Positions 6,970-61,579 are shown, numbered from the stretch's first letter. The stretch is 64,000 bases of DNA from an uncultured Gammaproteobacteria bacterium (GCA_964463925.1 CAYXDV010000001.1:12276-76275); one strand, 5' to 3'. Notes: generated by a model from the letters alone, not told the origin. Program-made: numbers and translations.

Positions 6970-7254
6970 TTATTTATTTTTTTTGGTTGTAGCCGGAGTT
7001 GGGCTTTGGATAACGGATAGAGTGGGGGTAGGAACTTCTATTTGAACAGATGGCTGGTTGGTTTGTCCAGTTGATCTGGTACTAAGAAGACCAATTCCGT
7101 TGGTTAATAAGTAATCAAAACCGCCTAAGATTATGGCGATTGTTAACGAAATAGATATTACCACAACTGATAGTTGAATTAAAGTGGTCCGATTTGGCCA
7201 AGTTACAAGCCGTGCTTGGGCAATAGATTCTTGGATATAAGTTAAAGGATTCAT
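6970..7254 (-). CDS. secE: preprotein translocase subunit SecE
   Basis: Single-TM SecE-like core (LVTWPNRTTLIQLSVVVISISLTIAIILGGFD) directly upstream of nusG, plus a Pro/Thr-rich tail. Confidence 0.8.
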   Translation of the reverse strand: MNPLTYIQESIAQARLVTWPNRTTLIQLSVVVISISLTIAIILGGFDYLLTNGIGLLSTRSTGQTNQPSVQIEVPTPTLSVIQSPTPATTKKNK

Positions 7255-48151: not shown

Positions 48152-48604
48152 ATGAGTACAAAATATTTAAAAGAATTGATTGGACAATTGGAAGATGCTG
48201 CTGGTGTGGAAAATAAAGCGGCGGAGTTATTTAAAGGCATGGGTGGTAGGCATGATCCTGACAAACTAGATGTAGCTCTTGCCAAGGCTGCATCTCAACA
48301 GCAAGAATTTCGTTCTGTTTTGAGCGATAAACTGCTCGTACAGGCTGCAGAATTGCGCGATTGGGAAAGTGTTAGGGGTCAACCGAAGAAGGGCAATACG
48401 GTATCTGAGGGTGATGTTGTTGCTACAGTAGAAGAAGGAAAATTATTTATGATAAGGCATGGAGCTGGTAGACAGTTAGAAGATGGGGTTACTGCAGTTA
48501 GTCCAGATTCTCCAGTTGGAAAGGCGGTTATGGGAATGAAAAGTGGCCAGATTGGAACCGTCTATTTGCCAGGCGGCATAACTGGCAAAATAACACTAAA
48601 ATAA
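48152..48604 (+). CDS. GreA/GreB-family transcript cleavage factor-like protein
   Basis: C-terminal FKBP-like domain (…DVVATVEEGKLFMIRHGAGRQLEDG…SPDSPVGKAVMGMKSGQ) and an N-terminal coiled-coil-like region. Confidence 0.6.
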   Translation: MSTKYLKELIGQLEDAAGVENKAAELFKGMGGRHDPDKLDVALAKAASQQQEFRSVLSDKLLVQAAELRDWESVRGQPKKGNTVSEGDVVATVEEGKLFMIRHGAGRQLEDGVTAVSPDSPVGKAVMGMKSGQIGTVYLPGGITGKITLK

Positions 48605-48837: not shown

Positions 48838-48875
48838 AAAGAAGGGAGGAGAGTGATCTCCCCCCTTCTTTTGTT
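48838..48875 (+). terminator. hairpin plus T-run (plus orientation) at the convergent gene junction
   Basis: GAAGGGAGGAgagtgatcTCCCCCCTTC followed by TTTTGTT. Confidence 0.4.
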
Positions 48876-51042
48876 AATTGGATTTGGGTTTGCCCCAGCG
48901 TTCTTGGGATACACGAACTAAGCGTTCCCGACCTTGATTTTTGCATTCTAGAGGTGGAAGGGTAGTAGCGTAGAAGGGTTCTTGAGTTTGAGAATCAATG
49001 GAAAGCTTGGCTAGAATTTGATATTTACCAATTTTAACTAGGTCTTCGGCTGGGAAGTTGGGACCAAATTCGCGGGTAAGAATGGCGGCATCCTGGGAGC
49101 CTACAACGTAGGAAAGCAGTGTACCAACATTTCCTAAAATGGCATCTTGAATGGTTCGATCCAGCTGGGACATGTACTGGTTAGCAACAATTAGATTTAG
49201 CCTAAATTTACGGGCTTCGGAAAGAATTTTGATAAAGGCTTCGGTAGCAAAGTTTTGAAACTCATCGACATACAAATAAAAATCTTTACGTTCATCTGTA
49301 GCTAAATGAACCCGATTCATGGCAGAAAGTTGGATTTGGGTGATGAGCATGGCACCCAAAAGGGCACTATTGTCTTCGCCTAGCCGCCCTGTAGATAAAT
49401 CGGCAATCAGGATTTTGCCTTCATTCATTATCTGTTCAACGTTGACCTTGCTTTTGGCCTGAGAAACGGTGTTGCGAATATTACTACTAGATAGGAATTG
49501 ACCGACTTTGTTGAGAATTGGAGAAATGGCCTCAATTTGCAATTTTTGGTCCATTTTTTCAAATTCATACTGCCAAAAGTTTAAAAGAGTTGGCGGAATA
49601 CCTGGGGTGGCAAGTAACTTTTTGCGATAGGCAGAATTGGTAAGCAAATCAATAATATTTCCAAGGTGAGTATTGGGTGCATAAACCAGAGTCAAAATAG
49701 TATTGCGTAGAATATGTTCAAGCCTGGGTCCCCAGGAGGTATTTCCGTATAATTTTTTAAAAATTGAAACTACCCCCGAGGCTACTAATTCCCGTTGAGA
49801 ATCTGAATAGATTTCTAGGACATTTAGGGGATATATATAATCTGGGTCGGCTGGATTAAAATAGCAGGTATCGTTGACCCGGGAGCTGGGGATGTAATCT
49901 AGGATAGTTTGGGATAAATCGCCGTGGGGGTCGATAATGGCTACGCCTTTGCCCTTGCGGATATCGTCTACCGCCATGTTGGCAATGAGGGTGGTTTTTC
50001 CGGTTCCCGATTTACCAATGATATAAGTGTGTCGGCGCCGGTCTTCGCCATCTCGAATGCCAAAAATGGTTTCTTTGTTCCTGAATTCAGTTTTGGCAAA
50101 ATAGGTGGTTTGGTTTTTTTCTTCGGTGGTGGCGTTGGTGGCTACTGGTAAATTCTCGGGAGGATCGGCATAAAGAGTTTTTCCCCAAGCGATATTAGGT
50201 AGTTTTGTTAGCTTGGTTGGCGGATGCCACAAGAGGGCTAACTCTTCGCTATTAAGGATTTGTTTTTTTAAACGGCGACGAAGCTGGCGATTTTTTAAAC
50301 TGGAAATTAGGGTGGGTTTGACTAGGGGATTTGGGAGGCTTGACAAGAGCAGGTTGCCCCTAGGGTTGCTATAAATTCCAAAGGAAGAAGTAACGGCGGT
50401 TAGCAAAACGGGATTGGTAGAGGCCAAATTAATCTGGCAAACCAGACCTGGAAACTGGATTTTTTGTTCAAAAATCTGCCGATCAGGATGCGGTTGCCGT
50501 AGATTTTTGGTAGCATCTATTACAATTCCGTTTTGGATTAAAGAAAAAGTGTGATTTTGCCAGGAAGAAGAAGCTGGAGAAAGTAATATTTGGTAAAGGA
50601 AAAAATCCTGATTTTGACTGCTGCGCGAGAGGGGGGCCAAAACAGAAGTAAGCGGATCGACTTCCCGAAATTCTTTGGCGGATTTGAGCGGATAGGAGGC
50701 ATTTTTACTAAAAGCCATTTGGGCAAGGGACAATTTGGAAAAGTCCAAAGAATTCAAATAATCTTCTTTTGGTTCTAAAAAAAGGGCAGTGGGAAACTGG
50801 CCTAAAAACTGAGATTTTATATATTCAGATAGGTTAGGAGGAGCTAAAATATAAAAATGGATTTGCCCCTGGGATAGGACAATTTCTAAGGAAGTGAGTA
50901 AATGGTGGTGCTTAAAAATTTTTTCAGAAAAAGTTTTTTTGAGGCTGTGGGTTAGGGTAGCAAAAAAGGAGTTGGCCGATTCTATAGTATATTCATTATT
51001 TTGGGGCAAACGGACTTCGTAGCAAATTAGGGCAGAAGACAT
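48874..51042 (-). CDS. FtsK/HerA/TraD-superfamily P-loop ATPase (VirB4/T4CP-like; AAA-like DUF87 type)
   Basis: Walker A IIGKSGTGKTTL near the middle; Walker B-like FYLYVDEFQNFATE; then ...RKFRLNLIVANQYMSQL. No TM segments. About a 320-aa N-terminal domain of unknown function. Confidence 0.6.
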   Translation of the reverse strand: MSSALICYEVRLPQNNEYTIESANSFFATLTHSLKKTFSEKIFKHHHLLTSLEIVLSQGQIHFYILAPPNLSEYIKSQFLGQFPTALFLEPKEDYLNSLDFSKLSLAQMAFSKNASYPLKSAKEFREVDPLTSVLAPLSRSSQNQDFFLYQILLSPASSSWQNHTFSLIQNGIVIDATKNLRQPHPDRQIFEQKIQFPGLVCQINLASTNPVLLTAVTSSFGIYSNPRGNLLLSSLPNPLVKPTLISSLKNRQLRRRLKKQILNSEELALLWHPPTKLTKLPNIAWGKTLYADPPENLPVATNATTEEKNQTTYFAKTEFRNKETIFGIRDGEDRRRHTYIIGKSGTGKTTLIANMAVDDIRKGKGVAIIDPHGDLSQTILDYIPSSRVNDTCYFNPADPDYIYPLNVLEIYSDSQRELVASGVVSIFKKLYGNTSWGPRLEHILRNTILTLVYAPNTHLGNIIDLLTNSAYRKKLLATPGIPPTLLNFWQYEFEKMDQKLQIEAISPILNKVGQFLSSSNIRNTVSQAKSKVNVEQIMNEGKILIADLSTGRLGEDNSALLGAMLITQIQLSAMNRVHLATDERKDFYLYVDEFQNFATEAFIKILSEARKFRLNLIVANQYMSQLDRTIQDAILGNVGTLLSYVVGSQDAAILTREFGPNFPAEDLVKIGKYQILAKLSIDSQTQEPFYATTLPPLECKNQGRERLVRVSQERWGKPKSN

Positions 51043-51892
51043 AGTTGATTATAGGGGAGGTGTGGGCCTGTGTCGAGGTTGCATATGTGCTGTGTTAGAA
51101 GCGATAGTATTTATCTACTAGATTGGTGGGGGATGGGAGTTTAAGATGGAGTATGGCTGGTGGTAAAGATAAGGAAAAGAAAGGACTGGGGATTGGGGAA
51201 ATGCAAGGGCGAGGGTGGCTTCCCGGGTGGGGTGTAAGAGATAAAAGTGCTATGGGTGGTTTGTTGGTTGCAGCTTTTGGACAAGGTGGCGGAGTGGAAA
51301 AATCAGAGCCCGTCAAAAGATATAGTTTTCCGGAACCTGCTATTGAGACTCCAAATGAGAAAGAAGGGGACAAGCCAGTACAACTAGGCTTGGGCCTGTG
51401 GCTGGAACACTAAACTAATTATAGGCTTGATTTTTCAAATAAATGGGTTATAATAAGTCATTTTAGGTATAAAAATAGCCCTAGAAAAACCAAAGTCATA
51501 GCGATTTTGGAATTGTCTTTGGCTGTTCTTTAACATTCTGGACTCAATTAACCTTGGGTGGGGTTGTGGGAGAAGTAAATTACTTTTGCCATAACTCCAT
51601 CCAAGGAGGTGGAAAATACGTAATTAAATAAAAAATCATCTAAACTCCTACTCGGAAAACCAAAAAACAAGTAAAAAACAAGCCAAGTAAGAACAAAATG
51701 AAATATTTTAGTAAATTTGCCACCGGCAAAAGAGGAATGCGCTCTATCAGACGTGCAGTCAAAGATCGCTGCCGTCGTTTTAGGGGATCTGCGGTTAGCC
51801 TTGTAATCCAATCCCCAACACTCGATGCGGCGCAATTGCCGAGTCCCAAGGTTCCGTTGGGAAAGTTACCTAGGAAACCTTAGGGCGTTTTT

Positions 51893-51922
51893 ATCGTGTG
51901 CGGGCTTTCGCCCGCACACGAT
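51893..51922. repeat. perfect 13-bp-stem hairpin flanked by a GGCGTTTTTA direct repeat
   Basis: ATCGTGTGCGGGC-TTTC-GCCCGCACACGAT. GGCGTTTTTATCGTGTG lies immediately 5' and AAGGCGTTTTTAGTGTG lies 3'. Confidence 0.45.
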
Positions 51923-52235
51923 AAGTCAGAATTTAATAAAAGGCGTTTTTAGTGTGCCAGTTGGCAAAAATTGAAAAAGAAAAAATTGAGTCCAGAATGT
52001 GTTTATATCTATACATAATTGGATGAATATATTTCAATATAAAAGCAAGAATTTTTAAGAGCTGTGTACTATACGGTGGAAGGAGGTGGTAGATTTAGAT
52101 TGAAAGTCGGACCGTTTTCCAAATCTGTGGAATTGCAGGCAATCGATGCGGTGAAAGGGGATAGACAAGCTACAGATAGAATGGAATGGTTTTTTGGTAG
52201 CAGATAAAAAACACTCGGTGTTTTGGTAGCTATAC

Positions 52236-52263
52236 TTGACAAACCTAACTTTTTGGATATAAT
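52236..52263 (+). promoter_or_regulatory. consensus sigma70 promoter (TTGACA-N16-TATAAT)
   Basis: TTGACA at 52236-52241 and TATAAT at 52258-52263. The downstream ATG at 52273 is about 3 nt from the predicted TSS, so the mRNA is leaderless or nearly so. Confidence 0.55.
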
Positions 52264-52272
52264 ATATGTTAT

Positions 52273-52731
52273 ATGAGTCTAAAAGAAACAATAATGGGTT
52301 GGGTTTGCGAAAGAAGAGGTTTTCCAGTTCTGGATAAAACTGTTTTTTTATCTAATAATACTGATGAGGCGATTGCCGGAGCCTTAGGTCAAGCTTATCA
52401 GGCTGTTGTTGGTTCTGGGTTAAGAGTAGACGAAACAAGCCTATATAACGCACTTGCAGGCGCTCGGCATGCTCTTGTGCGTCTACGAGGGGATACTCTT
52501 TTATCTGACGGTACTGGTTCGGTTAATGTTATGATGTCTCATAAGGGTTCTGTTACTGCGAGAGTAGCTGGTTTTAATATCTGGTCTATGTCTGGCATAC
52601 AGATTAATGGATGTGAGAGATATGCCCGATCTGAAAGGCCTGAATCTCTTACTCCAGATGAGTCTGAGGCAGTTGCCAATTTCAAAAATCTGGCAAATTG
52701 TGGACAGACTATTAGTAATGATCCGTGGTAA
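52273..52731 (+). CDS. hypothetical protein (first of three co-directional small genes)
   Basis: 152 aa, soluble, no recognised motif. Intergenic gaps to the next genes are 39 and 5 nt. Confidence 0.5.
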   Translation: MSLKETIMGWVCERRGFPVLDKTVFLSNNTDEAIAGALGQAYQAVVGSGLRVDETSLYNALAGARHALVRLRGDTLLSDGTGSVNVMMSHKGSVTARVAGFNIWSMSGIQINGCERYARSERPESLTPDESEAVANFKNLANCGQTISNDPW

Positions 52732-52770
52732 AAATTATAAGTTGATTTTTTGAAAAAAATAAAATAAATT

Positions 52771-53232
52771 ATGCCAGGAACAGCATTAGAGAAATTAGCT
52801 CAAGTTTTTGGTTTAGCAAAGAAAGAAAAGCCAAAAGTGGATCCTAGAATTGTCAGAGCCAAACAATTGGCGAGTAGGGGTCCTTATGGGGCTAACGTGG
52901 GATTTGCAGATGAGGATATTGCTGCAAATGCACAAAGTCAATTGGACTTTAATCCTACCACTGGTGTCTTTGAATCTAGTGACATTTTAACTTCTGGTTT
53001 TAATGCTATTGCTCCTCCAATTGAGGGTGTTGATGACGGTTTTGATCTTTCTGTTCGTATGCAAGCAAAGGCATTTTCCCAGACAGATCCTAGAGATGGT
53101 AGATTATCACATAGAAAAATTGCAGTCGTAATTGAAGGAGGACATGGCTTAAAAGGGTTTGCTGATGCTTATGTTGGTAATAAAATTGTTCCACCTGATC
53201 CTAAACAACCTCCTAAAAAGGGTAAACATTAA
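52771..53232 (+). CDS. hypothetical protein
   Basis: 153 aa, Gly/Asp-rich, Lys-rich C-terminal tail (KQPPKKGKH). Confidence 0.5.
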   Translation: MPGTALEKLAQVFGLAKKEKPKVDPRIVRAKQLASRGPYGANVGFADEDIAANAQSQLDFNPTTGVFESSDILTSGFNAIAPPIEGVDDGFDLSVRMQAKAFSQTDPRDGRLSHRKIAVVIEGGHGLKGFADAYVGNKIVPPDPKQPPKKGKH

Positions 53233-53237
53233 AACTC

Positions 53238-53558
53238 ATGACTAATGTAGATAAGTCTAATAGTGGTTTTAGGGCTTGGTTAGCTGGTTTATTGTCTAAG
53301 GGTGGTTCTAAAGTATTTTTTTCTGATGGACAATTAGCAGCAGGAAGTAGCGTAGAAAAAGGAGGGGAAGAAATTAGGTTTGGATCTGAAGCCCAAGGGA
53401 TTAGAACCACAGTTGAAGTTAATCAAATAATTGCTGCTCAGCTGGGTAAACAGGGAATTCGATTTAGTATCACATCACGGGCAGTTCGGCCCACTGGAGG
53501 TGTAGTTGAGGCTGGAATAAGTAATCAAAGCAGGGGAGTACAACCTAAGAAAAAGTAG
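53238..53558 (+). CDS. hypothetical protein
   Basis: 106 aa, Gly/Ser-rich, basic tail (RGVQPKKK). Confidence 0.5.
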   Translation: MTNVDKSNSGFRAWLAGLLSKGGSKVFFSDGQLAAGSSVEKGGEEIRFGSEAQGIRTTVEVNQIIAAQLGKQGIRFSITSRAVRPTGGVVEAGISNQSRGVQPKKK

Positions 53559-53609
53559 AGCAGATTCAAATACACTCAATTCTGATTTTTTGGAAAAAGT
53601 TTTAAAGAT

Positions 53610-53647
53610 GCAGAGTAGTAGAGGGGGTTTAACCCATTCTACTCTGC
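53610..53647. terminator. hairpin between convergent operons
   Basis: GCAGAGTAG-(20 nt with nested GGGGG/CCC)-CTACTCTGC, with T-runs on the minus-strand side. Confidence 0.4.
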
Positions 53648-53673
53648 ACCTTCTATTCAGTTGTAGACACAGA

Positions 53674-53904
53674 TTATTGGTCGTCCCGTTTCCGGAACGG
53701 CCACATTCCGTCTGGCCAGGTCCTTCTAAAGGATCCTACTAGACCTACGAGGAAAAAAATGACAAGTAGAATGCCAAGGGCCTTATTTACAAAGACCCAT
53801 GGGTCTATGGAATCAAAGATCATCTGGGATGTCAGACATCCTAACCCCTCGAGAAGGATTAGGATATACAGACACCCTTTGTCGCTTTGCTTTCCCCCCT
53901 TCAT
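53674..53904 (-). CDS. small membrane protein (2 TM)
   Basis: 76 aa. Its start overlaps the upstream gene's stop by 4 nt. GC-rich codon usage. Confidence 0.5.
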   Translation of the reverse strand: MKGGKQSDKGCLYILILLEGLGCLTSQMIFDSIDPWVFVNKALGILLVIFFLVGLVGSFRRTWPDGMWPFRKRDDQ

Positions 53905-54218
53905 TTCTTGCCCCCGGCATCAAGCCTCTGGGTTTCCGCCTCAGCGACGGCATTTATGCCGTCGGTGTCCAGACTTTTGACCATTAGTGCTCCAACCCCG
54001 CTGCCTCGGCTCTCCGCCGAGCTTTTCCCCACCTTGGCTTTGAAGGCCGTATGGGAATTGACGAGCACAAATGCGGCGCCGATTAGCCCGAAAATTATCG
54101 TGGCTATCACTAGACTCCCAATTACTGCTTGGGCGATGGGGTCTAGCTGAGGAAATACCAGACCTAATGTAATGACGATTACCATTATGGCAATCGTTTT
54201 AGCAGTGTTGCTGTTCAT
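53901..54218 (-). CDS. small membrane protein (2-3 TM)
   Basis: Begins MNSNTAKTIAIMVIVITLGLVF.... The ATG overlaps the upstream TGA (ATGA). The ORF-track N-terminal extension to 54542 is the Arg-rich antisense of the neighbouring gene and is rejected. Confidence 0.55.
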   Translation of the reverse strand: MNSNTAKTIAIMVIVITLGLVFPQLDPIAQAVIGSLVIATIIFGLIGAAFVLVNSHTAFKAKVGKSSAESRGSGVGALMVKSLDTDGINAVAEAETQRLDAGGKK

Positions 54219-54742
54219 TGTTTTGCTCCTTTTTTCAATTCTTTTTTGGTGTCCGGCCTTGGCCGGACACCTTTGCCCTTGGTTTCCACGCTGGTCTCGC
54301 CAATCTGCACTCGCGAGTATGAGCTGCTCTTGGAGAGCACCCATACCATTAGAGTCAGGACAAATAAGAACCCCTCGCCGGCGAAGATCGCCAGGCAGAG
54401 AGGCTCTTTGGTCAGTAGGTAGGCGACGAGCAGTAGTGCGTTGAAACCGAAGAATCCCATTCCCAGGATTCCGACCCAGGAATGGGAGGTGGCGTGCTGG
54501 ACTGTGCTTCCAGCACCCACCTGTCCGGTGCAGGTGGGGCAAATTCTTTTTCGCGGGAAGAACCTTTCATCGTCTACCCACGGATCGGGTACACTATATG
54601 TATGGCGACATTTTTCACATGTCGCCATTACAGTTTTGTTTTGGTATTTGCGCCTCAATGCCGACTTTCGATTCCCGTCTATCACCCAGACGAAGAATGC
54701 TACGGCAAGGAAAGTGCCCACAGACCCGACAATGTCATTCAT
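54215..54742 (-). CDS. membrane protein with a cytoplasmic zinc-ribbon (CxxC-x23-CxxC)
   Basis: N-terminal TM, then ATCEKCRHTYSVPDPW...RICPTCTG, then 2-3 more TM helices and a Lys-rich tail. Confidence 0.6.
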   Translation of the reverse strand: MNDIVGSVGTFLAVAFFVWVIDGNRKSALRRKYQNKTVMATCEKCRHTYSVPDPWVDDERFFPRKRICPTCTGQVGAGSTVQHATSHSWVGILGMGFFGFNALLLVAYLLTKEPLCLAIFAGEGFLFVLTLMVWVLSKSSSYSRVQIGETSVETKGKGVRPRPDTKKELKKGAKQ

Positions 54743-55080
54743 TGGGTGCCTCCTGTGAAGAAAGTTTGGAAAAACGGTAGCCAGAACAGACTTATGTCTG
54801 CCATGGTGCTTAGGGATGTTTTTCCACTTCTAAATAGTGTGGATAGTATGGTGTCAGCTATTGTTAGTGCAATAGTTGCTATCCAGAAAAAGAAAACATA
54901 GTTACCATATCCACTTATTTGGATTGTTGGCATAAACGGTATGATGTTTCCCTTGTTTTCCATTCTCCACCAAAGCGATAGAAGAATCCAAACAATCATA
55001 CCTATCCTATAAGCCCAGACTGACCTCCAATCTTTAGGATTGTTTTTTGGGGTTATGTCTCTATCCATGTTTCCTCTCAC
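54739..55080 (-). CDS. small membrane protein (3 TM)
   Basis: 113 aa. It overlaps the upstream SPFH gene's 3' end by 20 nt and the downstream gene by 4 nt. Confidence 0.5.
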   Translation of the reverse strand: MRGNMDRDITPKNNPKDWRSVWAYRIGMIVWILLSLWWRMENKGNIIPFMPTIQISGYGNYVFFFWIATIALTIADTILSTLFRSGKTSLSTMADISLFWLPFFQTFFTGGTQ

Positions 55081-55864
55081 TTATTAGTTCATCAATTACG
55101 TGCTGTTCTAATGCCCTTCTTGTGATTTGTTGTCCACCTTCACCGATAAAGGTTACAATTGGTTGTCTTTTGCCTCTGCGTTGTGCCATTTGCGATCTGA
55201 CCGCCAAATCCACCCACCTTATGACGTGGTCTGAATTTCCACCCATCTTACTAAAAGTATCGCCAAGAGCTTTAGCCCTGAAAGCTTCTTGCCCTGCTAG
55301 TGTTCTGGCTGCAAGTTCATCTTTTAGTTCATCTTCGGGCTCTATGTCCGTTAGTTGAATTGCTTCCATTTGCACACCTATAGAGGACGTCTTGTTCGCG
55401 AATGGTTTTAGGTCTGTGGGCGTGATATTTACTCCTTGACCTTCAAGGAAGTCTTTTTCTGCTATTAGAGATCTGACTACATCTCTAGGAGCTTTAGTTA
55501 TTCCAGAGAATAGAGTTTCGTCTTCGACAAGGGCGTATCTCCACTCGTACCTTGGATCGTCTGGAACTGTATAAAATGCAATTCCTGCTACTTTAACGGT
55601 GAAGCCATCTTTGGTTACAGCATTTCCCTTGAATTCTGCATCGAATGCGACTACTGGCACTTGACGTTTTCCTCCAGGTTTTTCAAGAAGAGGAATAAAG
55701 AAATGCACTCCCCCAGGGCCAACCATACGATTTGGGGTCCCTAGTCTTAGGATTGCTATTCTAGTGTCTGGAGGTGCCATTATCCAGACTAACCCATTTC
55801 CCAAAAATAGCACCAGCAGTCCAAATACCACTAGCACTATTGGAAAAAGAATTTCACTGTTCAT
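55061..55864 (-). CDS. SPFH/band-7 (stomatin/prohibitin-like) membrane protein, second copy in the window
   Basis: N-terminal TM then ...VPVVAFDAEFKGNAVTKDGFTVKVAGIAFYTVPDDP... SPFH core and a coiled C-terminus. GC about 52%. Confidence 0.75.
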   Translation of the reverse strand: MNSEILFPIVLVVFGLLVLFLGNGLVWIMAPPDTRIAILRLGTPNRMVGPGGVHFFIPLLEKPGGKRQVPVVAFDAEFKGNAVTKDGFTVKVAGIAFYTVPDDPRYEWRYALVEDETLFSGITKAPRDVVRSLIAEKDFLEGQGVNITPTDLKPFANKTSSIGVQMEAIQLTDIEPEDELKDELAARTLAGQEAFRAKALGDTFSKMGGNSDHVIRWVDLAVRSQMAQRRGKRQPIVTFIGEGGQQITRRALEQHVIDELISERKHG

Positions 55865-55879
55865 GTTGTTTCTCCTGTT

Positions 55880-56548
55880 TTAGAAATGTCGTGGTGGGAG
55901 TTTCCCGTCACTCTTCTTTTGTGGATTTTTGATTGTGGCAACAGGTTTGTTGTTAACCAAAGGCAGGTGTTGGGCCATTTTTGCCTTTAATAAACTTGTC
56001 GCCAGTTCCCTGGTATCACTGTCCACACCCTCTTCAGCCAGCTCGGTAAGTGCCTCAATTAGCTCGGGTGTTAGCCTGAGCTCTTGATCGTCGCCACCAA
56101 CCCCTTCGAGCTCTGTGACGACCCTTACCGCCGGATTTTTTGCTGCCCTTTTTTGTTGGGGCTGGACTGGTTCATCAGTAGCGGGAGCATCCTCTTCTTT
56201 CGACCCTTCTGGCTTCCTGAAAAAGCTCAGAATCACCAAACCCACAATTAGCACTCCGGCCACGCCTGCCCCAACAATTGGGTTTTCGGTGGCAGAGTAT
56301 GCGGCCAACCCGGCCGCCAAGGCGAGCACCATCTTGTTAAGGATGGTGTTTTTAAAAAGCAAGTAGATGGCCTGAAAGAGACCACCACTTACTAACGAGA
56401 AGCTCATTTGTGCTTCTGGAAAAATCCTAAAAGTTTCATTTAGCGTTGGAAACGCTACGAATCCAATTAGGCTTCCCACGAGCCATGGACCAATGATTTT
56501 GAATAGCCATTTTGGGACTCCGTCCCTGATGGCCTGACGGGTATTCAT
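55880..56548 (-). CDS. membrane protein (4 TM) with an acidic C-terminal domain
   Basis: First gene of the minus-strand operon; 222 aa; no OB/NfeD-like signature seen. Confidence 0.5.
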   Translation of the reverse strand: MNTRQAIRDGVPKWLFKIIGPWLVGSLIGFVAFPTLNETFRIFPEAQMSFSLVSGGLFQAIYLLFKNTILNKMVLALAAGLAAYSATENPIVGAGVAGVLIVGLVILSFFRKPEGSKEEDAPATDEPVQPQQKRAAKNPAVRVVTELEGVGGDDQELRLTPELIEALTELAEEGVDSDTRELATSLLKAKMAQHLPLVNNKPVATIKNPQKKSDGKLPPRHF

Positions 56549-56623
56549 TTTTTCTCCTTTTGGCCATTGGGGCAGGGCCCCTTTGGTACTATTTTGGTAC
56601 TATTATGATGATTGGTTGTTTTT

Positions 56624-56836
56624 GGTTTACACCAAGCAGGGGATAAGAGGGGAGGTTATCCGCTAGTTGGTGTAAACCAAATAGGAGTTTTCGTTTGTCT
56701 ACAACTGAATGTTAAAGAACATAGTGGCTTTGTTTAGGCGCTATGCCTAATTAAAGTCACTTACGTTTCCGTTTGCGTAGATACGCAAACAGGCCCAAAG
56801 TCTAGTTGCAGATGCAGTAGAACTTGAGCCTGTTTG
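56624..56836. promoter_or_regulatory. inverted-repeat-rich non-coding region upstream of the membrane operon
   Basis: GGTTTACACCAA...TTGGTGTAAACC (12-bp IR, 56624-56678); GTTTGCGTA-gat-ACGCAAAC (56771-56790); CAAACAGGC...GCCTGTTTG (56786-56836); direct repeat GGTACTATT x2 (about 56586-56603). Confidence 0.45.
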
Positions 56837-56933
56837 CATGGATGATTATACCCTATAATAACCAAAATTGCAAGTTGTGGTCAACAGACTTGAGAAGCTT
56901 GACACAGAAAACCCGAGGATTATAATATAGGTT

Positions 56934-57188
56934 ATGGGTAAAGATAAAATTGGTGGTGCTGTTGCTGCCTGTTTGGTATTTGGATTATTGGAGTTAGGAT
57001 CGCCTGGAGGACCATTGTTGCCAACTATTAGGAAGGTATTATGTGGTCCTATTCCTACTCAAAATTGTGGTAACTTGTCCAGAACTGTGGCAGAGGGACT
57101 AGATGCCGTGATTGCCTATTTTACTGGTGGAGTTATAGTAAGAAGGGCAATAGGACAGTCGAGTGGTGAGGGAGAAAAAAAGCACTAA
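56934..57188 (+). CDS. hypothetical small membrane protein
   Basis: 84-aa ORF with one hydrophobic segment; weak. Confidence 0.3.
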   Translation: MGKDKIGGAVAACLVFGLLELGSPGGPLLPTIRKVLCGPIPTQNCGNLSRTVAEGLDAVIAYFTGGVIVRRAIGQSSGEGEKKH

Positions 57189-57256
57189 TTGGCTCGTCGT
57201 GTTATAATCCCTAGTTAATTTTATTTATTTAACTTTAGCCGGGAGTTTCCTGGACT

Positions 57257-58171
57257 TTGTCCAAACCGGTGATAAAAAAGGAAAATATGAAAAAAGTGAG
57301 TAATAAAGTAATTGATTTGAGGGAAGATAAGGATAAATCGAAATTAGTGATGAAGGACAAGAAGGAAGCAGTAGCCGAGAAGAACGAAGAGATTTTACAA
57401 AAAAAGAGTAAAAAAGTATTGGCAGGGGCAGTAACTAAAAAAGAAGTAGCAAAAACAAAAGTAGAAGATGTGGCGGAAACCAAAGAAGATGCTTATGAAC
57501 TGGGAATTGGACTTGAAGAAATGCTAAAAGCCGGTTGCCATTTGGGCCACAAAATTTCTAAAACCAACCCTAAAGTAACTGACTATTTGTATGGTAAAAA
57601 AGATGGAATTGCGGTAGTGGATTTGCCTAAAAGCTATGCTGATTTGCAAAAAGCCTGCGCTTTTGTGCACCAATTAGCCAAAGAAGGTAAAACTATTTTA
57701 TTTTTGGGTACAAAAAGATCGGCTAGAGAAGTAGTTCGACGAGTGGCAGGAGAATGTGGAATGCCTTTTGTGAGTAATCGCTGGCCAGGTGGAGCTATTT
57801 CTAACTGGGAGCAAATAAGAAAATCCATAAAATCAATGAATGAGACGGCTAGTAGATTAGAAAAAGGAGTAGAGGGGGCAACTAAAAAAGAGATTTCTGT
57901 AATGAGAAAAAATTTAGTTAGAACTCAGACTATGTTTGGGGGAATGTCTAAAGTAGAAAAAATGTTTGATGCAATGTTTGTAGTAGATATTACCCATGAA
58001 AAAACTGCCTTAAAAGAGGCAAAACTACACAAAATACCCATAGTGGCTTTGGTAGATACCGATAGTAATCCAGGTTTAGTTGACTATCCAATTGTGGTTA
58101 ACGATGACTCGGTTAAATCAGTAACCCTGATTGTAGAAGAAGTTGGCAGAGCAATTGCTAACAAAAAATAA
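57257..58171 (+). CDS. rpsB: 30S ribosomal protein S2 with a Lys/Glu-rich N-terminal extension
   Basis: ...MLKAGCHLGHKISKTNPKVTDYLYGKKDGIAVVDLPKSYADLQKA... is the S2 core, preceded by about an 80-aa charged extension. Confidence 0.9.
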   Translation: MSKPVIKKENMKKVSNKVIDLREDKDKSKLVMKDKKEAVAEKNEEILQKKSKKVLAGAVTKKEVAKTKVEDVAETKEDAYELGIGLEEMLKAGCHLGHKISKTNPKVTDYLYGKKDGIAVVDLPKSYADLQKACAFVHQLAKEGKTILFLGTKRSAREVVRRVAGECGMPFVSNRWPGGAISNWEQIRKSIKSMNETASRLEKGVEGATKKEISVMRKNLVRTQTMFGGMSKVEKMFDAMFVVDITHEKTALKEAKLHKIPIVALVDTDSNPGLVDYPIVVNDDSVKSVTLIVEEVGRAIANKK

Positions 58172-60994: not shown

Positions 60995-61081
60995 AGCGGG
61001 TATTTTGACAAGAAATGAGAAAAAAGCTATAATTTTAGATACCCTCTCAAGGTGGCCACACGAAAGTCTGACCACCTTTTT

Positions 61082-61579
61082 TTATTTTTGTAGTAAGCTC
61101 TTCAATCGAAGTAAGTCAATGAAATCGCTACCAAAGAGTTTTTTTAAATCAAGAGCACAGGTTTGTGGATTTGAAAAAAGCTTTGTATTTTTCTTCTGAT
61201 TTCGAAGAAATTCAAAAAGATGATAATAATCTCCATCTCCAGTAAATAATAAAATTGAGTTGTAGGAATTAAAATTCTTCATAACTTCGAAAGTCATAAA
61301 GGAATCTATGTCAGCCTTTTTCTTTCCATTGGAAAACTGCTTAACGTTTACTAATTTAAGTTCATAACCTAACTTTTCGAGCACTTTGTAAAATGACTCC
61401 TGTTTTTTATTTTCAGTGTCCCGGCCGCCAAAATAAAATATTTTGGATACTTGGTATTTTTCCTTTAGATAGTTTTTTAGTTTTTTAAAATCTAGCTGCC
61501 AAGAGGAAGATTTTAAGCTGTAAATGATATTACTTGCATCGATATAAGCTTGAGTAGTCACATTGATTAATGGTAGCAA
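61082..61579 (-). CDS. NYN/LabA-like (PIN-related) domain protein
   Basis: AYIDASN... N-terminal acidic motif and ...LLFTGDGDY... are characteristic of NYN/LabA. Confidence 0.65.
   Translation of the reverse strand: MLPLINVTTQAYIDASNIIYSLKSSSWQLDFKKLKNYLKEKYQVSKIFYFGGRDTENKKQESFYKVLEKLGYELKLVNVKQFSNGKKKADIDSFMTFEVMKNFNSYNSILLFTGDGDYYHLFEFLRNQKKNTKLFSNPQTCALDLKKLFGSDFIDLLRLKSLLQK

Follow-up and report, generated by a model that had tools for sequence, protein, structure and literature searches.

The question addressed here is what three small, tightly packed genes of no recognizable family represent, which lie behind a full-consensus promoter at positions 52,236 to 53,558 of a 64,000-nucleotide (nt) stretch of DNA (GCA_964463925.1, CAYXDV010000001.1:12276-76275; the window), deposited under the name of an uncultured Gammaproteobacteria bacterium. 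An initial annotation, made from the sequence alone, described them as imported, highly expressed and possibly phage-like cargo. The analysis reported here favours, with slightly better than even confidence, a genuine three-gene operon (the cassette) of one narrow lineage of Candidatus Shapirobacteria, which would form a strongly and constitutively expressed accessory unit under relaxed or diversifying selection. The earlier view of unusual, imported and phage-like DNA is mostly unsupported; the evidence leaves a fast-evolving operon of orphan accessory genes in an islet at an insertion hot spot. The coordinates of the features are compiled in Table 1.

Coding signal, promoter and gene starts

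The three open reading frames (ORFs) have the lengths and the close spacing that were initially reported, with intergenic gaps of only 39 nt (genes 1 and 2) and 5 nt (genes 2 and 3), so that they are probably transcribed as one unit. With 26 long genes of the window as the training set (mean 0.18), the codon log-odds are 0.24, 0.28 and 0.21 for genes 1 to 3 in the annotated frame and negative in the five other frames, both in the window and in the only other lineage known to carry such genes (see below). Genes 1 to 3 are very probably true protein-coding genes. Their products are small, soluble and free of hydrophobic segments, signal peptides and membrane segments. The overall G+C content of the genes (40-42%) is due to high values at the first and second codon positions (GC1 0.52-0.57, GC2 0.43-0.49), the products being rich in Gly and Ala; third-position values (GC3) are 0.19-0.26, lower than the host average (0.34). 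The adjacent membrane operon, with a GC3 of 0.5-0.6 and genes led by Shine-Dalgarno (SD) sites, is atypical in composition and looks foreign, unlike genes 1 to 3, whose codon usage and translation signals are host-like. The initial claim that the cassette shares an elevated G+C content with this operon is thus not borne out.

As initially noted, the cassette converges on the membrane operon, which occupies positions 53674-56548 on the minus strand. Between the two lies a hairpin that is strong on both strands and followed by a U-rich tract on the minus strand, and which is therefore read as a probable bidirectional terminator common to both transcription units.

The promoter matches the consensus at every hexamer position and ends 9 nt before the ATG of gene 1 at 52273; an overlapping alternative reading, TTGACA-18-TAATAT, brings the -10 hexamer to within 7 nt of the same ATG. 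The promoter sequence is present as first described, and perfect TTGACA-N16-18-TATAAT arrangements occur three times in the window, far above the 0.03 expected by chance. The ATG is not preceded by any SD-like 4-mer, and the predicted gene 1 mRNA is unstructured over its first 67 nt (z +1.5). The statement that such a promoter is unusual in a genome whose other genes lack -35 and -10 elements was not borne out by a survey of the 75 non-overlapping ORFs of at least 80 residues (aa) in the window. A -10 hexamer (at least 5/6 matches) ends 3-12 nt 5' of the start codon in 27 of them, against a background of 5% at random positions, and the most frequent gap is 5-6 nt; an SD-like motif, even one of four bases, is found at only 7 of the 75 starts. 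Examples of a -10 hexamer close before the ATG are the genes at 1570-2112, 2709, 6970-7254, 8277, 35411, 40377, 48152 and 48874-51042, and perfect promoters are also present at 56899 and 61005. A -10 box a few bases 5' of the start codon is the usual gene-start design of this genome, so that a leaderless layout is no mark of foreign DNA here. The uncommon part of the gene 1 promoter is its perfect -35 hexamer, which most leaderless starts in the window lack.

Gene 1 is predicted to be leaderless, which is plausible on this layout, as the initial annotation had held; the mRNA leader would measure 0-3 nt. The annotations differ in the start assigned to the gene: IMG places it at the ATG at 52273 (152 aa), NCBI and Logan at Met8 (145 aa). 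With the gene callers split in this way, three points would speak for a leaderless start at 52273: the 5' end of the mRNA is unstructured, IMG selects this ATG, and the ATG with its four codons opens two unrelated ORFs, one in the window and one in the relative, a coincidence with a roughly estimated chance of about 0.05. Gene callers guided by ribosome-binding sites will probably place starts wrongly in this genome, as illustrated by the two pipelines that truncated gene 1.

In leaderless bacterial genes the -10 (Pribnow) box stands immediately 5' of the start codon; such genes are extensive in the transcriptome of Mycobacterium tuberculosis, and gene finders provide a 'bacterial leaderless' genome class. 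The cassette resembles them in a -10 hexamer that ends 5-11 nt before the ATG, in the lack of an SD site and in an unstructured 5' end, features shared by about a third of the starts in the window; it differs from most leaderless starts of the window in its perfect -35 hexamer, the start itself being a prediction from sequence. A literature search yielded no description of leaderless gene usage in Patescibacteria. The window offers clear sequence evidence that in a Shapirobacteria genome a large proportion of the genes start leaderless, SD sites being nearly absent, which affects gene calling.

Table 1. Coordinates of the cassette and of the features around it (positions counted from the first base of the window)
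Feature	Position	Strand	Description
Sigma70-type promoter	52236-52263	+	TTGACA 52236-52241, 16-nt spacer, TATAAT 52258-52263; 12/12 hexamer matches
Gene 1	52273-52731	+	152 aa, isoelectric point (pI) 5.7 (acidic), soluble; probable leaderless start; variable slot
Gene 2	52771-53232	+	153 aa, pI 9.2, conserved Lys-rich C-terminal tail; orphan
Gene 3	53238-53558	+	106 aa, 15% Gly, pI 10.4, KKK tail; orphan
g0 remnant (fourth cassette gene)	52023-52207	+	Intact in contig L001 (120-413, 97 aa); broken in the window by 1-nt and 86-nt deletions
Converging-operon hairpin	53605-53652		-25.5 kcal/mol (+), -27.3 kcal/mol (-); z -3.4 and -5.4
Module 1 (predicted)	51427-52000	+	Promoter 51427-51454, hairpin 51490-51510, boxA 51525-51535, leader arm 51533-51549, trailer arm 51984-52000
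Module 2 (predicted)	53655-56884	-	Promoter ~56884-56845, hairpin 56837-56785, boxA 56720-56710, leader arm 56710-56696, SD-led membrane operon, trailer arm 53669-53655
Strain-specific islet	51043-57256		6.2 kb, from the ATPase gene to rpsB; cassette, membrane operon and 84-aa ORF

Distribution and divergence of the cassette

The proteins of genes 1 to 3 are orphans confined to one narrow lineage. A word-index search of 5.8 billion proteins recovered nothing beyond the source genome and one relative; with a profile of gene 2, exhaustive HMMER searching of 1.84 billion representatives recovered the same relative alone. Genes 1 to 3 had no match in Pfam, NCBIfam or PADLOC, and none to a known anti-phage defence or toxin-antitoxin model; comparison of the cassette proteins with the PDB by sequence gave nothing significant. 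The same was true of PHROGs, where the best hit was that of gene 3 to phrog_8279 (expectation value, E = 0.029) and the two additional ORFs of the relative, g0 and g1' (see below), had none. No cassette homologue was found among 2.9 million IMG/VR contigs or, by tblastn, among 50,697 INPHARED phage records, and no significant one in JGI metagenomes; one JGI contig (L038) is 100% identical to the window. A phmmer comparison with the full set of 2311 ORFs from the window and from 34 related loci revealed no relative of any islet gene. AlphaFold2 modelled gene 2 as two N-terminal helices and a five-stranded beta region with a mean predicted local distance difference test (pLDDT) value of 59.6, and gene 3 with a value of 37.0. 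The search for remote homology with Foldseek on predicted models, which had been recommended at the outset, brought no match at E ≤ 0.001 and no template modelling (TM) score above 0.37 against the PDB and BFVD. The initial description of the proteins as unrecognizable thus stands for families, structures, viruses and metagenomes beyond the one relative. Rfam gave no match in 50900-53900, neither at the gathering threshold nor at E ≤ 5. No integrase domain was present among the islet ORFs scanned, capsid and terminase genes were likewise not seen, and there were no att-type direct repeats among the repeats listed for 50900-57400.

The neighbouring gene encodes an ATPase of 722 aa (DUF8128 with HerA/TrwB-like domains), which has 34 relatives among GTDB species genomes at 62-71% identity, nearly all of them from Candidatus Shapirobacteria or other Patescibacteria. 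The host of the cassette is an uncultured Candidatus Shapirobacteria bacterium (Patescibacteria). The gene order topA-ATPase-rpsB-tsf is conserved in the relatives, where the stretch between the ATPase start and the conserved part of rpsB has a median length of about 0.6 kb (24 relatives with both genes on the contig), compared with about 6.2 kb between the two genes in the window. In most of the 34 relatives the ATPase gene and rpsB are adjacent, and a few carry different, unrelated inserts of 1-5 kb at this site; the islet genes were not found at the syntenic site in any of the 34 Shapirobacteria-related loci. The conserved gene order, the short gap in the relatives and the absence of the islet genes from it show the region 51043-57256 to be an islet specific to the strain, located at a hot spot of insertion.

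Only two Logan contigs, which overlap and come from another sample, carry homologues of genes 2 and 3: L001 (2462 bp) and L002 (915 bp). The arrangement on L001 equals that of the window and includes the converging membrane gene, so that the co-occurrence of cassette and membrane operon, which had been proposed as a check, is seen in one known relative. Both promoter hexamers are identical, with three substitutions in the spacer, and the ATG and the first four codons of gene 1 are kept (MSLK in the window, MNLK in L001). DNA similarity is lost between about 52283 and 52761; in L001 the gene 1 slot is occupied by an unrelated ORF of 179 aa (g1') that continues in frame from the shared ATG and its four codons, and a comparison of gene 1 with this replacement found no similarity. 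In genes 2 and 3 the lengths, starts and stops are all retained, and the only coding indel measures 3 nt and is in frame, against several out-of-frame indels in the flanks. The basic C-terminal tails and long sequence blocks of both proteins are conserved, and the arms of the hairpin at 53605-53652 are identical except for one base at the foot of each arm. Upstream of gene 1, L001 contains an intact ORF with coding-like codon usage (g0), of which the window retains the remnant listed in Table 1. The site of the 86-nt deletion in g0 is flanked in L001 by the direct repeat TGGTTTTTGGG.

All estimates of selection are drawn from this single pair, the window and L001. Protein identity is 76-77% for gene 2 and 69% for gene 3, and the substitutions are distributed evenly among the three codon positions (17/21/20 and 22/14/16, respectively). 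The ratio of non-synonymous (dN) to synonymous (dS) substitution rates is 0.70 for gene 2 and 0.98 for gene 3, not clearly below 1, at a dS of about 0.18. In the adjacent membrane gene dN/dS is 0.28, dS 0.92 and the position counts are 26/18/50. The synonymous changes observed in genes 2 and 3 (12 and 8) are close to those obtained by simulated random placement (11.8 and 10.6). The joint probability that no stop codon would have arisen under neutrality in the two genes, over 111 substitutions, is 0.03. The non-coding flanks diverge by 5-8% and the genes by 13-17%. The doubt expressed at the outset, that the ORFs might lack conservation and coding signal in related genomes, is thus answered in part: the coding signal is present, but conservation extends to one relative only and comes without purifying selection. 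Lineage-specific ribosomal proteins, which would be basic, strongly expressed and encoded beside rpsB, were considered as an identity for the products and rejected, as the genes are absent from all relatives and evolve at a dN/dS near 1.

Flanking boxA modules and the origin of the cassette

The cassette is surrounded by three chained pairs of perfect inverted repeats of 15-17 nt (51524-51549, 51984-52000, 53655-53669 and 56696-56721), all with an ATTC core. Within the shared arm, TGTTCTTTAACATTC, lies a sequence that fits the boxA consensus GYTCTTTAANA (PMC5725501) at every position. The two boxA copies, GTTCTTTAACA, one on each strand, lie 65-120 nt after a promoter-like site and past a hairpin. 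The number of boxA motifs in the window is not above chance (2 observed, 0.93 expected); the boxA reading is supported by the 15-nt identity of the two copies and by the recurrence of the design in relatives. Directly after each boxA begins the 5' arm of a predicted long-range helix, perfect over 17 bp in module 1 and 15 bp in module 2, which brackets a 434-nt segment in the former and the whole 3-kb membrane operon in the latter. Five relatives show the same design of promoter, hairpin, boxA and a perfect 14-18-nt arm (L008 9246-9805, L019 373-995, L023 6165-6895, L027 7285-8309 and L031 174-1060, all on the minus strand), where the arms differ in sequence and stay complementary, and where the modules bracket small membrane or Cys-rich proteins. 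The cassette itself lacks a boxA and sits between the trailer arms of the two modules.

Antitermination leaders of rRNA operons comprise boxB, boxA and a leader-trailer helix (PMC10250234 for the helix), and some protein-coding genes are likewise preceded by boxA elements (Baniulyte et al. 2017, PMC5725501). The two flanking modules resemble these leaders in their promoter, hairpin, perfect GYTCTTTAANA and perfect helix of 15-17 bp around a transcribed unit. They differ in that their helices enclose no rRNA but a membrane-protein operon in one case and a 434-nt segment in the other, and any role of Nus factors would be putative. As the shared arm is boxA, each copy lies 3' of a promoter and a hairpin, and the design recurs with different arms, the inverted repeats are best interpreted, by analogy, as RNA elements comparable to rRNA leader-trailer helices and not as recombination sites. 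They would account for at least part of the conservation of the flanks. We know of no description of boxA and leader-trailer modules that bracket protein-coding accessory genes and recur with compensating arms, and these modules are a more unusual feature than the cassette itself; they would make Nus-dependent protection of foreign genes testable.

An inversion of DNA at the perfect repeats, switching cassette and membrane operon in the manner of phase variation or a shufflon, was considered for the three chained pairs with their common core, and was rejected on the identity of the shared arm with boxA and the recurrence of the design in relatives. One 'pair' consists of the two boxA copies, each 3' of a promoter, the other two bracket transcription units in the way of leader-trailer helices, none of the ORFs around the locus was seen to encode a recombinase, and three independent assemblies agree in orientation; the chance of an inversion system is very slight. 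The idea that the region is non-coding, a conserved structured RNA or regulatory DNA with accidental ORFs, could draw on the predicted RNA elements in the flanks, on flanks and synonymous sites that are unusually conserved in comparison with the neighbouring gene, and on the lack of purifying selection on the amino acid sequence. It is hardly credible in view of three consecutive same-strand ORFs of 106-153 aa in a 40% G+C genome, codon log-odds that are positive only in the annotated frames of both lineages, conserved starts and stops, and the blank Rfam result. A remnant of a prophage or mobile element coding for structural or regulatory phage proteins is improbable too, if less so. The strain-specific location, a GC3 below the host mean, basic tails that would suit nucleic acid binding and the match of the neighbouring ATPase to phrog_5156 may be cited for it, as may the layout: phages and prophages carry morons, self-contained accessory units of promoter, gene or genes and terminator, and the cassette resembles these in its own strong promoter and predicted terminator hairpin, its strain-variable surroundings, its exchangeable content and its fast-evolving orphan genes. 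It differs from morons in lying outside any recognizable prophage, in the lack of viral homologues in the databases searched and in its host-like codon usage. The ATPase is conserved at the same place in all relatives, outside the islet, and neither PHROGs (g0 and g1' included), IMG/VR and the phage records, nor the BFVD folds, nor the search for integrase, capsid and terminase genes among the ORFs scanned and for att-type repeats among those listed for 50900-57400, contributed anything in favour. The initial suggestion of phage-like proteins thus finds no support; that of imported cargo survives as far as the islet DNA is absent from the syntenic site in 34 related genomes, but neither the leaderless consensus layout nor the codon usage is a sign of foreignness.

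The most serious competitor, which we nevertheless regard as doubtful, is that the genes are decaying relics, an imported cassette drifting to loss whose promoter and flanks would be kept for the sake of the neighbouring RNA elements. The dN/dS values, the division of substitutions as in random placement, the broken g0, the replacement of gene 1 in L001 and the absence of the cassette from the 34 related genomes are all in line with this. Against such drift speak two genes that remain open and of the same length after 111 substitutions, a sole indel that preserves the frame next to flanks with several out-of-frame indels, strongly host-like codon usage and the conserved basic tails and long blocks. 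The preferred reading, an accessory operon, would have the full-consensus promoter drive strong constitutive transcription of a moron-like unit of promoter, genes and terminator; gene 1 would be its replaceable part, with the two basic products of genes 2 and 3 as constant partners, and the relaxed or diversifying selection acting on the cassette proteins would be most typical of conflict or host-interaction functions. Several points weigh against this reading. A dN/dS near 1 together with the decayed g0 fits functional loss of the cassette equally well, and a single relative stands behind every selection estimate. The dS of the cassette is five-fold below that of the adjacent membrane gene (0.18 and 0.92), which suggests either that the cassette was passed between the two lineages more recently than its surroundings, or a constraint at the nucleotide level. 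The gap of 9 nt between the -10 hexamer and the ATG exceeds the genomic mode, so that a leader of 2-3 nt or a start at Met8 is possible. Finally, neither sequence nor structure gives a clue to any particular function, the AlphaFold2 models being poor. A bolder extension, to which we attach only a small probability, is that of an exchangeable expression cassette: the fixed strong promoter and the leaderless start of four codons (M-x-L-K) would serve as a docking point for unrelated first genes in frame, the cassette would be traded among related Shapirobacteria more recently than the surrounding DNA, and together with the flanking boxA and leader-trailer modules it would form a lineage-specific system through which accessory genes are taken up and expressed upstream of rpsB.

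In itself the cassette matters little, since orphan accessory operons are common in Patescibacteria and its promoter layout is the ordinary start of this genome. It is moderately interesting for the exchange of gene 1 and for its selection pattern. A non-homologous replacement behind a kept promoter and start, neutral-looking proteins and conserved flanks together form the signature of a conflict or host-interaction locus, which is of interest to specialists; the host interactions of these organisms are poorly understood.

Other features of the islet and the window

The membrane operon encodes an SPFH/Band-7 protein at 55061-55864 and carries canonical AGGAG ribosome-binding sites in a genome otherwise nearly devoid of them. 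At the other side of the cassette, the segments 51043-51523 and 51550-51983 form an ORF-poor region of 1.2 kb without an Rfam match. It contains a G-rich ORF of 96 aa with coding-like codon statistics (51123-51413), a very basic ORF of 61 aa within the helix-bracketed segment (51698-51883), and a perfect 15-bp hairpin (51891-51924), which together with a small hairpin at 51869-51884 reaches -36 kcal/mol.

In three relatives the interval between the ATPase gene and topA holds perfect inverted repeats of 14-23 nt around some 400-430 nt (L012 2705-3166, L013 12165-12622 and L036 12220-12648), which may represent another long-range helix around a small gene; the corresponding interval of the window contains a GreA-like gene (48152-48604).

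The second perfect consensus promoter of the window (56899-56926, plus strand) lies 7 nt before the ATG of the 84-aa ORF at the right edge of the islet (region 56899-57188, plus strand), another orphan, which is Gly-rich with a hydrophobic N-terminus. The third (61005-61033, plus strand) is followed only by a stem-loop of about 45 nt and a T-run (aggtggcc...gaccacct ttttttt, to 61085); the element at 61005-61085 may represent a very small RNA or else a terminator behind a promoter that is there by chance.

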